Of a stretch of 64,000 nucleotides of DNA, positions 1 through 2,565 are shown piece after piece. Numbering within the stretch: position 1 is the stretch's first letter; the number at the start of each line of letters is the position of its first letter. This DNA is from Spartobacteria bacterium (GTDB taxonomy: Bacteria > Verrucomicrobiota > Kiritimatiellia > RZYC01), in contig RZZM01000001.1 of assembly GCA_009929845.1 (NCBI GenBank), positions 14,166 through 78,165 on the forward strand. The letters are read 5' to 3'. Below the pieces are notes generated by a model. That model made no database searches and was not told the DNA's origin. It saw only the letters and a list, made by a program, of their open reading frames with translations. A program made the translations under genes and the position numbers.

Positions 1-139
1 GCATTATAGAAGTTGAGATATCCTCAACAAAGGCAGATCAATTCATGAGATGGGATCAACTAGATGGTATAGGTCCCGCAAGATTTGCGGAGATTCTTCA
101 ACTTGGTGATGCCGTCATCAATCCATAAGGTTAAAAAAT

Positions 140-436
140 ATGAAGGCACAGATAAAATGGTTAAAAACGGATAGACATGGGCAAGCACTTATACCTCAAT
201 CGTCACGGTATTCTACTGTTGCGCGTTTTGATGATGATGCTGAAAATTGGCCAATGTTTGCCTGGAGCATCGTTCTTGAGAACATTACTTTGGTTGGTAT
301 TAATAATGAAATTTTAGCGGACATTCGATTTCTTGTTAGTAATGCGCCTCAACATTTTCTTCATGAAGGTAGCCATTTCGAGTTGTATGAAGGTCATAGT
401 TGCGTTGCAAAAGGATTCGTGGTGGGTTCAGTTTAG
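140..436 (+). CDS. Hypothetical small protein in a low-GC island. It may be an immunity protein for a toxin gene upstream of the window.
   Basis: ORF of 98 aa with an AAGG Shine-Dalgarno-like sequence upstream. It is AT-rich relative to the rest of the window and sits just upstream of an RHS-core toxin-like ORF. No recognisable motif. Confidence 0.3.
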   Translation: MKAQIKWLKTDRHGQALIPQSSRYSTVARFDDDAENWPMFAWSIVLENITLVGINNEILADIRFLVSNAPQHFLHEGSHFELYEGHSCVAKGFVVGSV

Positions 437-476
437 GAATAACTCTAGCTAATAGGACAACCTGCTTAGTTTCAAG

Positions 477-1490
477 TTGCTGATAGTATCCGGCACGTTG
501 AAAATGAGAAATGATGAAAAAAGCAAATGGTTAATGACGACAGTTCTGATGCTTATAGGCATCTGTTCTGTTCTCGTGTCTATCCCGGTTATTTCACATG
601 ATGGAAGCCCCGTCATAACCAACTGGAACCCCCGCTACACCGTCTTCGGGCCAGTCTCCACCCCCTCCATCAACGCGCCCTCCTTCGCCACCCGTCGCCG
701 CGACCCCACCGGCCTCTACTTCTTCGGCGCACGTTATTATGATCCGAAAACTGGTCTTTTCACCCAACCAGACCCTGCCCGCCTCGCGGACAGCCGCAAC
801 CTGTACGCCTTCTGCGCGAACAACCCGTTGCTGAACTTTGATCCCGATGGACGGTTGTCAGCCCAGAACATGGCATCGGTAGATAATTCAGACCAGAATG
901 TATCTGCGCAATACGGCTCATACGGCACACAGAACTGGGAATACGAGCAGAACCATCTCGCGACCATGGCCCAGACCCTCCGCCCCGTTGGAGAACTCAT
1001 GGCCGGTGATTATGCGGATGTTGCCTACCTGGGCGTTGACATCTATGATTTCGTGCAGGACCCAAGCTGGCAGGGCGCTGGCGCCATTGCCGTCGGCGTA
1101 GGTTTGGTTGCACTTCCCGTTATCTCCAAGCCCCTGGCAAATGCGGCGGAGGGGGTTGTTGAAGGCGTTGCAAGAAATATGGATGGCGTTACCCCAAAGA
1201 AGCTCAAGACGGTCCTTGGTAGCAGTCAAGATGTTGCGCCTTTCAAAGGAAAACCAGGCTACAATGTGCTGGAGATGGATACAACTTTGCCTTTGGACAC
1301 CAGAAAGGGTCTCAATATTCAGTGGCTGGATGAGGCAATTGACCGTGGTGACGACATTATCCTTAAGACAGACCCATTTGAGTGGGAAAGGTTCATGCGA
1401 GAGATTGGAAAAGAATCCTTTTATAACGAAGTTGAGTTGCCAAGATTATTAGAGAAAGGGATGATAGGCGATGTTATTCTTGATTACTAG
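477..1490 (+). CDS. RHS repeat-associated core domain protein with an N-terminal signal/TM segment and a variable C-terminal domain of unknown function (polymorphic toxin-like)
   Basis: The translation has a hydrophobic N-terminus (LMLIGICSVLVSIPVIS). It then carries the RHS/YD core signature TRRRDPTGLYFFGARYYDPKTGLFTQPDP...NLYAFCANNPLLNFDPDGRL, with the DPxG motif. About 200 aa of unique C-terminal sequence follow. Low GC. Confidence 0.6.
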   Translation: MLIVSGTLKMRNDEKSKWLMTTVLMLIGICSVLVSIPVISHDGSPVITNWNPRYTVFGPVSTPSINAPSFATRRRDPTGLYFFGARYYDPKTGLFTQPDPARLADSRNLYAFCANNPLLNFDPDGRLSAQNMASVDNSDQNVSAQYGSYGTQNWEYEQNHLATMAQTLRPVGELMAGDYADVAYLGVDIYDFVQDPSWQGAGAIAVGVGLVALPVISKPLANAAEGVVEGVARNMDGVTPKKLKTVLGSSQDVAPFKGKPGYNVLEMDTTLPLDTRKGLNIQWLDEAIDRGDDIILKTDPFEWERFMREIGKESFYNEVELPRLLEKGMIGDVILDY

Positions 1491-1505
1491 CGAGAGGAGT
1501 TCGCA

Positions 1506-1808
1506 ATGATTTCAAAAGCAAAGAACATTTGGTTTGTCCATTCTCAATATGAGCCCCCTATGCCCCTATGCCTACAACGTCGGGAAGGCTTAGGTGCGCA
1601 TATTGATGGCGGGAAGACTGGGCCTCATTCGACTGGACATGGTGAAACATACTGGGATGCATTTCGTGAGACTGTACAGCTCGGATACATTCCAGTTGAT
1701 GTAGCGAAAGAAATTGGGGCTTTAGACATGAATTGGAACCCTCCTACTATCGAGGAGTTGAATAAGAACATCAAAAAGCGTGTGTATCAGTTAAAGGCAA
1801 ATGTATAG
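1506..1808 (+). CDS. Hypothetical protein, candidate cognate immunity protein for the upstream RHS-core toxin
   Basis: ORF of 100 aa beginning 16 bp after the toxin-like ORF stop, on the same strand and low-GC. The position is typical of toxin/immunity pairs. No motif recognised. Confidence 0.35.
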   Translation: MISKAKNIWFVHSQYEPPMPLCLQRREGLGAHIDGGKTGPHSTGHGETYWDAFRETVQLGYIPVDVAKEIGALDMNWNPPTIEELNKNIKKRVYQLKANV

Positions 1809-1855
1809 AATAATTGTAATCCTTTCTATGTGGCAGGATAAAGAAACAAACTGAC

Positions 1856-2404
1856 ATGAAGACTATTAGATGGTTCGTAGCGGCATTTCTGATGTTTATA
1901 TACATCAGTTCTGCCTTTGCTTCTATTCCCGATATCACTCCGAATGAATGCCCCGTCGCCACAAACTGGAACCCGCGCTATACCACTTTCGGGCCGGCCG
2001 CCACCCCCACCATCAACGCCCCCTCCTTCGCCACCCGCCGTCGTGACCCCACCGGGCTCTACTACTTCGGCGCACGCTACTACGATCCACAGACAGGCCT
2101 CTTCACCCAACCAGACCCGGCACGCTTCACCGACTCCCGCAACCTGTACGCCTTCTGCGCCAACAATCCCATGACAAGAAGTGACCCCGATGGGCGACTG
2201 TCAGCCCAGAACATGGCCTCGGTATACAATCCGGATCAGAACACTTCTGTGCAATATGGCTCATACGAGACGGAAAACTGGGAATATAGTCAAAACCACC
2301 TTGCCATCACATATTCAATTAGTTTCGGGGAAATAGCCCTGGGTGACAAAAATATCGAGTCTTTTTCAAGAAGCCTGGAGATAATATTGACGAATATACA
2401 ATAG
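1856..2404 (+). CDS. Second, shorter RHS-core cassette (signal peptide + RHS core + short divergent tail); possibly degenerate
   Basis: The signal peptide is MKTIRWFVAAFLMFIYISSAFA. It has the same core as ORF 477-1490 (TRRRDPTGLYYFGARYYDPQTGLFTQPDP...NLYAFCANNP...DPDGRLSAQNMASV). The unique tail is only about 35 aa and no immunity ORF follows. Confidence 0.5.
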   Translation: MKTIRWFVAAFLMFIYISSAFASIPDITPNECPVATNWNPRYTTFGPAATPTINAPSFATRRRDPTGLYYFGARYYDPQTGLFTQPDPARFTDSRNLYAFCANNPMTRSDPDGRLSAQNMASVYNPDQNTSVQYGSYETENWEYSQNHLAITYSISFGEIALGDKNIESFSRSLEIILTNIQ

Positions 2405-2565
2405 AAATACCTGAAGGTGAAGGTCTTTATGTGACTTACAAGGTTTCTGAATAGTGATCTCATCCAGTCGATTCGCTACAATGCACGGAACTACTGCTCA
2501 TGGTTTTCTGCATGTGTCTTGCATTCAGCCTAGACAATTTCGTTCCTACACGTGAAGATAACGCC

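Follow-up and report, generated by a model that had tools for sequence, protein, structure and literature searches.

Putative Shell-less RHS Toxin/Immunity Modules with Their Own Leader Segments in a Spartobacteria Bacterium Contig

The prevailing picture of an RHS toxin is that of a cocoon with its cargo enclosed. Here we analyse a stretch of 64,000 nucleotides (the window) that is part of an 80,139-bp contig from a metagenome-assembled genome (MAG) of a Spartobacteria bacterium, and whose first 2460 positions carry two short open reading frames (ORFs), ORF1 and ORF2. Both encode mini-RHS proteins, with an RHS-associated core, a leader-like segment in front of it, and a variable C-terminus behind it. 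We compare them with described RHS systems and with relatives in other genomes, and propose a model for how such proteins might act.

Described RHS Systems and the Window Locus

Canonical Rhs proteins, such as RhsA of P. protegens, which belongs to a type VI secretion system (T6SS), and the Sec-dependent 2055-aa RHS protein of locus L001, share with the window proteins the core, the PxxxxDPxG motif, the aspartates, a variable toxin, and a downstream immunity gene. The last two, toxin and cognate immunity gene, are found for ORF1 and are missing for the truncated ORF2, and the L001 protein carries the same toxin domain as ORF1. In P. protegens RhsA (D1324, D1346) and in Tc toxins, the aspartate dyad is established as catalytic, with cleavage just past the motif (PMC8765631). 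Unlike canonical Rhs proteins of 1200–2500 aa, the window proteins, of 328 and 182 aa, have no YD shell and no PAAR, VgrG-linked, or plug domain. That an RHS cocoon can consist of two polypeptides is known from Tc toxins (PMC8765631), whose TcC proteins are the best solved-structure matches to the window core, with identical spacing of the aspartate dyad. TcC supplies about half of its cocoon, however, whereas the window proteins correspond only to the terminal plug and core. A Pfam scan of six window ORFs of at least 200 aa, including the three longest, found neither TcA or TcB genes nor RHS/YD repeats.

Classical orphan cassettes begin within the core and lack start codons. Enterobacterial orphan rhs-CT/rhsI cassettes are, like the window locus, tandem tip-plus-immunity units behind another toxin gene, with a core block usable for recombination (PMC3967940, PMC3150448); the window copies differ in having their own ATG, a leader-like segment, and constraint at the protein level. 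Bcn-A of X. perforans is a multi-gene, type II-dependent RHS bacteriocin that requires a 1398-aa RHS protein and the small ORFs encoded behind it. One of these, ORF4 (290 aa), is essential and combines a signal peptide with two hydrophobic helices at 148–198, and ORF5 confers immunity; the authors take ORFA to be the toxin and assign ORF4 an accessory role (PMC7259588).

Positions 1–2460 of the window form a same-strand (+) array of a presumed toxin ORF tail, a small ORF, a mini-RHS gene, its immunity gene, and a truncated mini-RHS gene. The features on which our argument rests are the following.

504–1490, + strand: mini-RHS toxin gene 1 (ORF1), NCC49581.1, 328 aa, annotated "RHS repeat-associated core domain-containing protein"
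504–581, + strand: signal-peptide-like segment of ORF1, MRNDEKSKWLMTTVLMLIGICSVLVS, with three K/R in its n-region and a best 15-aa Kyte-Doolittle window of 2.61
621–857, + strand: RHS-associated core of ORF1, NWNPRY...DPDGRL, TIGR03696
858–968, + strand: post-cleavage block common to both cassettes, SAQNMASV...NWEY.QNHLA, with the breakpoint at its 3' end
969–1487, + strand: variable C-terminal region of ORF1, with a toxin domain of ~100 aa at 1179–1487
1506–1808, + strand: predicted immunity gene, NCC49582.1, 100 aa, beginning 15 nt past the ORF1 stop, with a GAGGAG Shine–Dalgarno sequence
1856–2404, + strand: mini-RHS gene 2 (ORF2), 182 aa, with leader 1856–1924, core 1964–2200, shared block 2201–2311, and ~31 unique residues at 2312–2401
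1856–1924, + strand: predicted signal peptide of ORF2, MKTIRWFVAAFLMFIYISSAFA, with S following the cleavage site
527–826: direct repeat, reference copy, with the second copy at 1870–2169 (79% identity over 300 nt, ungapped)

From these features we propose the following model. Positions 1–2460 are probably the right end of a tandem array of independently translated, Sec-exported, self-cleaving shell-less RHS toxin/immunity modules. Each mini-RHS gene would be translated from its own ATG, and the leader would direct Sec export across the inner membrane. The core aspartyl autoprotease (D90/D113 in ORF1), whose motif is present, is predicted to cut after DPDGR(L), and the fragment released from ORF1 would then comprise ~210 aa: the 35-aa block, a hydrophobic Gly/Ala segment, and the ~100-aa toxin domain. 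The 1506–1808 product, whose pairing with the toxin is conserved, would protect the producer. Exit and entry of the toxin may occur by diffusion of the protein alone, or with a partner encoded elsewhere, and the shared core together with the 35-aa block would be the substrate of the tip swapping that generated the array. Real exported genes are favoured over silent tips by the own starts and leaders, the homology and recurrence of the leaders, the constraint on core and linker, the intact first toxin/immunity pair, and the lack of any full-length RHS protein from this contig in the database.

Core, Leaders, and Shared Block

An earlier reading of the same DNA (the original prediction) had assigned an RHS core to both ORFs, and hidden Markov model searches returned complete matches in each case. 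NCBIfam TIGR03696 (RHS-associated core) covers positions 1–75 of 76 in ORF1 (E 1.3e-18) and in ORF2 (E 6.1e-20), both proteins exceeding its cut-off of 32.5 bits; neither has a match in Pfam. For a profile built from both N-terminal regions, the best solved relatives are the TcC subunits YenC2 and TccC3 (E ~4e-12); T6SS Rhs proteins and teneurins come next. Candidate catalytic residues of ORF1 are D90 (771–773; QPDPAR) and D113 (840–842; DPDGRL), the latter in the motif P108-x4-D113-P-x-G; ORF2 retains PxxxxDPxG, the equivalents being P105, D87, and D110. The aspartates lie 23 residues apart, as they do in the aligned TccC3 and YenC2.

No model of the YD-repeat shell, which spans ~700–1200 aa (PF05593 / TIGR01643), matches either protein in Pfam or NCBIfam. 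The spacer between leader and core has 13 residues and aligns as a shortened last YD repeat (SIPVISHD--GSPVITN under ETVTYFHNDISGSPLAATD), in keeping with the earlier claim that only this last repeat precedes the core. By alignment, the leader of the window genes is joined exactly where the last YD repeat starts, as in the split RHS genes of loci L038 and L042 discussed below. From N- to C-terminus, ORF1 consists of the signal-peptide-like leader, the shortened last YD repeat, the RHS core, a conserved linker, a hydrophobic Gly/Ala segment, and the toxin domain. The Gly/Ala-rich segment, WQGAGAIAVGVGLVALPV, was located by hydropathy at residues ~188–212, between cleavage site and toxin, and similar hydrophobic segments occupy the same position in the relatives P0004, P0005, P0011, P0021, and P0141.

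ORF1 had been given a start at 477, which has to be moved: the NCBI start is the ATG at 504 (328 aa), and the 337-aa form from TTG 477 is absent from the collection. The resulting leader, MRNDEKSK-WLMTTVLMLIGICSVLV-S, has a +3/-2 n-region, an 18-residue hydrophobic run, and a weak cleavage site, and that of ORF2, MKTIR-WFVAAFLMFIYI-SSAFA followed by S, has a 12-residue hydrophobic run and a canonical AxA signal-peptidase site. The two leaders are homologous to each other; they are 33% identical, with a ratio of nonsynonymous to synonymous substitutions (dN/dS) of ~1.2, and both are still hydrophobic. Signal peptides typically diverge in sequence while remaining hydrophobic. A lipoprotein reading of ORF1 was rejected, as the Ile at -1 in LIGIC does not fit a lipobox. 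Such leaders are uncommon in ordinary short RHS-core proteins: of 41 taken from the best representative and homologue matches, only three have one at the N-terminus, one of them being ORF1's own product. The part of the original prediction that gave each gene its own signal peptide thus stands as regards an own ATG and a homologous signal-peptide-like segment; expression and secretion are what we infer from these.

Homology between the two cassettes at the DNA level spans from ~525/1868, inside the leader codons, to ~968/2311, a length of ~440 nt. Since it begins in the leader codons and not at the core, the leader-to-core junction was duplicated as a unit, and the direct repeat within it (527–826/1870–2169) could serve as a substrate for inter-cassette recombination. 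In the post-cleavage block, 28 of 35 residues are identical between ORF1 and ORF2, and in the next 25 only one is, so that similarity does break off abruptly 35 aa past DPDGRL, as first described; neither P0021 nor P0004 has this block. The cores of the two genes differ by a synonymous divergence (dS) of 0.75 with a dN/dS of 0.15, and the 35-aa block has a dN/dS of 0.06. These low ratios point to protein-level selection rather than to recent silent copies. In its second core half, ORF2 is identical to the 640-aa P0021 at 35 of 37 positions and to ORF1 at only 30 of 37, which means that family members exchange cores, and this mosaic shows recombination, as suspected at the outset.

Could the two genes be ordinary silent orphan rhs-CT/immunity cassettes, that is, displaced tips behind an upstream full-length rhs gene, serving as recombination stock and leaving their leader-like segments unused? 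This model is documented in Salmonella and E. coli (PMC3967940, PMC3150448). The window locus resembles it in its same-strand tip-plus-immunity units, short gaps, and ~440-nt conserved core block, in the ORF that runs in from the left window edge, and in the seven locus tags that precede the window on the contig. A Shine–Dalgarno sequence is missing ahead of both mini-RHS ATGs, whereas the immunity gene has a strong one, and further observations likewise weigh against independently expressed and exported modules. Co-transcription with an upstream gene beyond the window would fit the intergenic gaps of 67 and 47 nt, and a promoter and terminator scan gave nothing better than shuffled sequence. 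The signal-peptidase site of ORF1 is non-canonical, and part of the observed constraint may have acted on donor genes, should gene conversion renew the cores. Moreover, in solved structures the RHS core plugs the cocoon from the inside (PMC8765631).

Both copies, however, unlike classical orphans, have an ATG and mutually homologous hydrophobic leaders, and their relatives in contig L036 form arrays of complete signal-peptide genes. The protein database contains no other RHS-core protein from this contig; the C-terminus of the upstream ORF is absent from it as well, hence the upstream gene is either unannotated or a pseudogene. We consider it unlikely that the window genes are silent orphan tips.

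Toxin, Immunity Gene, and the Surrounding Island

Over the ORF1 toxin domain, identity is 71% with the C-terminus of the 2055-aa signal-peptide RHS protein of Luteolibacter (L001) and 74% with P0002 and P0003. Directly after the L001 RHS gene lies an ORF 51% identical to ORF 1506–1808 (E 4e-33), and the pair recurs together in locus L046 too, supporting the conclusion that ORF 1506–1808 behaves as the cognate immunity gene of ORF1, with a presumed protective activity. P0008 carries the same toxin domain after nothing but a signal peptide, and P0003 and P0139 carry it after partial cores; occurrence on varied scaffolds is typical of polymorphic toxins. Neither the toxin domain nor the immunity protein belongs to a Pfam or NCBIfam family, and no sequence relative was found in the PDB for the toxin domain or for its ~100-aa partner. 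An AlphaFold model of the toxin, built on a four-sequence alignment, reached a predicted local distance difference test score of 53.5, too poor for use, and its Foldseek search gave nothing below E 0.29. The two proteins are a candidate for a new toxin/immunity family, carried on four different scaffolds. Conserved motifs of the toxin domain are TVLG..DV..FKGKPGYNVL, W[LI]..A..RGD.I..TDP, and ELP.L.

In L046 (JGI Ga0100379_10039119), an in-frame TAA interrupts the RHS core at 1290–1330 (...GLYYFG, stop, RFYEPASVKWITRDP...), upstream of the ORF1-type toxin/immunity genes; a nonsense mutation, an error in sequencing, or read-through could account for it. The end of that contig holds the start of a second signal-peptide RHS gene, in sequence that matches the contig's beginning.

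The distance of 15 nt between toxin and immunity genes and the strong Shine–Dalgarno sequence of the latter would also suit cytoplasmic modules in the style of type II toxin–antitoxin systems, acting inside the producer; a Salmonella orphan rhs gene is reported to act in this manner (PMC7043789). We judge this very improbable for the window genes, given an export leader conserved in the two copies and in relatives.

The second cassette had been suspected of being degenerate, and this was borne out. ORF2 has ~31 unique residues past the shared block and then a stop, no immunity ORF follows it, and 96 nt separate it from the rhomboid gene (NCBI start 2500). The exact ORF2 protein is absent from the collection, and EOM20_00055 has no protein accession and coincides with no RNA gene, which suggests that NCBI treats ORF2 as a pseudogene, a further point against an array of functional modules. 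Most likely ORF2 is a remnant, cut off at the island edge with loss of its toxin and immunity gene. The module at 504–1808 looks intact.

To the left of this module lie two further features.

3–128, + strand: 3' end of the upstream ORF, EOM20_00035, running off the left edge and ending ...FMRWDQLDGIGPARFAEILQLGDAVINP before a stop at 126–128; the sole open frame across 1–128
140–436, + strand: small ORF, 98 aa, NCC49580.1, EOM20_00040, beginning 11 nt past the upstream stop, 39.7% GC

From its position alone, ORF 3–128 is presumed to be the C-terminal tip of an upstream toxin gene. Its 41-aa tail has no match in the protein database or in Pfam; within it, LDGIGPARFAEIL resembles a helix-hairpin-helix motif by eye. 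The small ORF 140–436 has no family match in Pfam or NCBIfam and no homologue among the fetched loci. Of the two small ORFs first taken for immunity genes, then, 1506–1808 is borne out by its recurrence beside the toxin in L001 and L046, and 140–436 stays a putative immunity gene of the upstream toxin by position only. Exact NCBI matches exist for ORFs 140–436 (NCC49580), 504–1490 (NCC49581), 1506–1808 (NCC49582), 2500–3390 (NCC49583), and 3508–4353 (NCC49584). NCC49580, NCC49581, NCC49582, and NCC49584 carry the locus tags EOM20_00040, 00045, 00050, and 00065, respectively, and NCC49583, the rhomboid gene, by inference 00060. By these tags, seven tagged features precede the window, which probably starts ~16 kb into the contig.

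The island is AT-rich, as had been noticed: its guanine-plus-cytosine (GC) content is 47.8%, as against 57.7% in the remainder of the window, and the lowest value of any other 2460-nt stretch is 51.7%. This composition is a mosaic. Both core segments have 62–64% GC, with a GC content at third codon positions of 0.77–0.79, like the adjoining rhomboid gene (0.76); the leaders, tips, and immunity or small ORFs have 36–50% GC. Such a contrast between a GC-rich core and AT-rich tips is classical for rhs genes. The island is not marked by any tRNA, Rfam family, or flanking repeat.

The genes scanned to its right (2500–8538) are of housekeeping type and include a rhomboid protease, a nucleotidyltransferase, a flippase-like protein, and a GDP-mannose dehydratase. 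The first of these (2500–3390), a rhomboid intramembrane protease with a C-terminal DUF6576, borders the island, an adjacency that is probably coincidental. A 31-nt tandem repeat at 3841–3984 (3.6 copies, 89% matches) carries the palindrome TTCCAATGATTGGAA, of which the window has five copies where 0.02 are expected by chance; all are in frame within the nucleotidyltransferase ORF 3508–4353 (- strand), encode FPIIGK/SNDWKN peptide repeats, and leave the frame unbroken.

Short and Split RHS Proteins in Other Genomes

The cores nearest to those of the window are found in short RHS proteins of 490–640 aa (P0004, P0005, P0021), in which ~200 residues of immunoglobulin (Ig)-like and YD sequence precede the core. 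P0004 lies in the 3.2-kb contig L036, which has the layout of the window: a toxin tail, a small ORF, a signal-peptide RHS gene, a small ORF, and a signal-peptide RHS gene. Signal peptides with an AxA site followed by H occur in P0004, P0005, and the second L036 gene, in tandem toxin–immunity arrays; P0021 is a stand-alone gene with no leader and a small ORF downstream. L016 (860–1492), from a Kiritimatiellae MAG, encodes a 210-aa protein with a leader-like segment and the second core half only (TIGR03696 30–76), followed by a tip, and is an even more reduced form.

ORF1 and ORF2 have lost, relative to P0004 and P0005, ~190 residues between leader and core. This raises the question of whether both are decaying, non-functional remnants, derived by in-frame deletion of the YD region from a 500–650-aa gene of the P0004/P0021 type, in an island that is eroding from the right. 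The truncation of ORF2 and its want of an immunity gene fit such decay, and no other protein with the exact leader–core junction was found. Against it, the junction is present in both copies, so it is older than their divergence (core dS 0.75), and neither frame has been interrupted since then (dN/dS 0.06–0.15). The ORF1 toxin domain is full-length and 71–74% identical to intact relatives, its immunity gene is intact, and many clusters of an independent proteobacterial family show this minimal architecture as well. General decay is in our estimation quite unlikely.

That proteobacterial family, to which P0011, P0141, P0186, P0209, and others belong, shares with the window genes the junction point, a complete TIGR03696 core, a post-cleavage hydrophobic segment, and small downstream ORFs. 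It keeps the whole last repeat (YFHNDxxGSP...), whereas the window copies are short by ~10 residues, and identity is 19–36%. When the N-terminal 144 residues of P0011 were used as the query, 154 clusters matched; the best 120 of these comprise proteins of 90–252 aa, mostly from beta- and gammaproteobacteria, and 72 of the 120 have a clear signal peptide followed directly by the (T)YFHNDxxGSP last YD repeat, the core, and a short tip. The architecture is not unique to the window, and the original prediction that stand-alone signal-peptide versions would be unusual has to be given up. Neither the genome scan, which gave only relatives, nor the metagenome scan, which gave only three distant loci, returned the contig of the window, and Logan yielded one contig, of 998 bp. 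A literature search found no description of RHS toxins that are shell-less, mini, split, or bipartite and carry signal peptides of their own, and Zhang et al. 2012 give Sec-dependent RHS toxins only with repeat arrays. The window genes belong to an uncharacterised class with abundant database entries, in which they form a verrucomicrobial variant that is reduced still further.

What might such a protein do without a shell of its own? In L038 (Pseudomonas amygdali pv. mori GL384818.1, 4183–8756), type II secretion genes are followed by an uninterrupted 1264-aa ORF with a signal peptide and YD repeats, in which no TIGR03696 core was found. This shell ends in ...TEYFYLGDQRIAQRVSP, and 23 nt past its stop starts P0186 (leader, core, and Ntox10), whose mature end reads ETVTYFHNDISGSP. 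Mapped onto the contiguous L001 RHS protein, the two abut with neither gap nor overlap. L042 (an activated-sludge contig, 2–2891) repeats the order of shell and then cartridge, its shell continuing into Ig-like and FG-GAP-like repeats. A third locus, L039–L041, has tandem mini-RHS genes and no shell gene adjacent. Just upstream of one of these genes (2651–2881 in L039) is a 76-aa Flg_new_2 ORF that resembles the Ig-like C-terminal part of the L042 shell and may be a leftover shell 3' end duplicated along with the cartridge. A tblastn search of plasmids with P0186 yielded full-length RHS genes of the ordinary kind but no split locus.

By analogy with these loci, it is conceivable that proteins made of leader, core, and toxin are exchangeable plug-and-cargo cartridges, which would be Sec-exported, dock in the periplasm onto a core-less shell encoded elsewhere, close that shell and load it with toxin, and exit via a type II-like route. 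The exact fit of the L038 shell end to the mature start of P0186, beside type II genes, lends this idea some support, as do the repetition of the arrangement in L042 and the genetics of Bcn-A, which are compatible with it. The Bcn-A layout resembles that of L038 and the C-terminal organisation of ORF1, with ORF4 compared by description only, and looks like the same architecture as the split RHS loci. The members of L038 and L042 have a core-less shell gene directly upstream, whereas the window starts inside its array. We offer the cartridge idea tentatively and think it doubtful for the window genes; if it were true, a tandem array would let one shell fire several toxins without recombination.

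The relevance of the proposed tandem array of shell-less modules extends beyond this contig, which itself contributes a toxin/immunity pair that has no described family. Should a unit of core and toxin that carries its own export signal prove functional, either the RHS core would be a portable self-cleaving release module that works without a shell, or RHS machines would be assembled from separately exported parts. In that case, thousands of short "RHS repeat-associated core domain" proteins, now dismissed as fragments, would have to be re-annotated.

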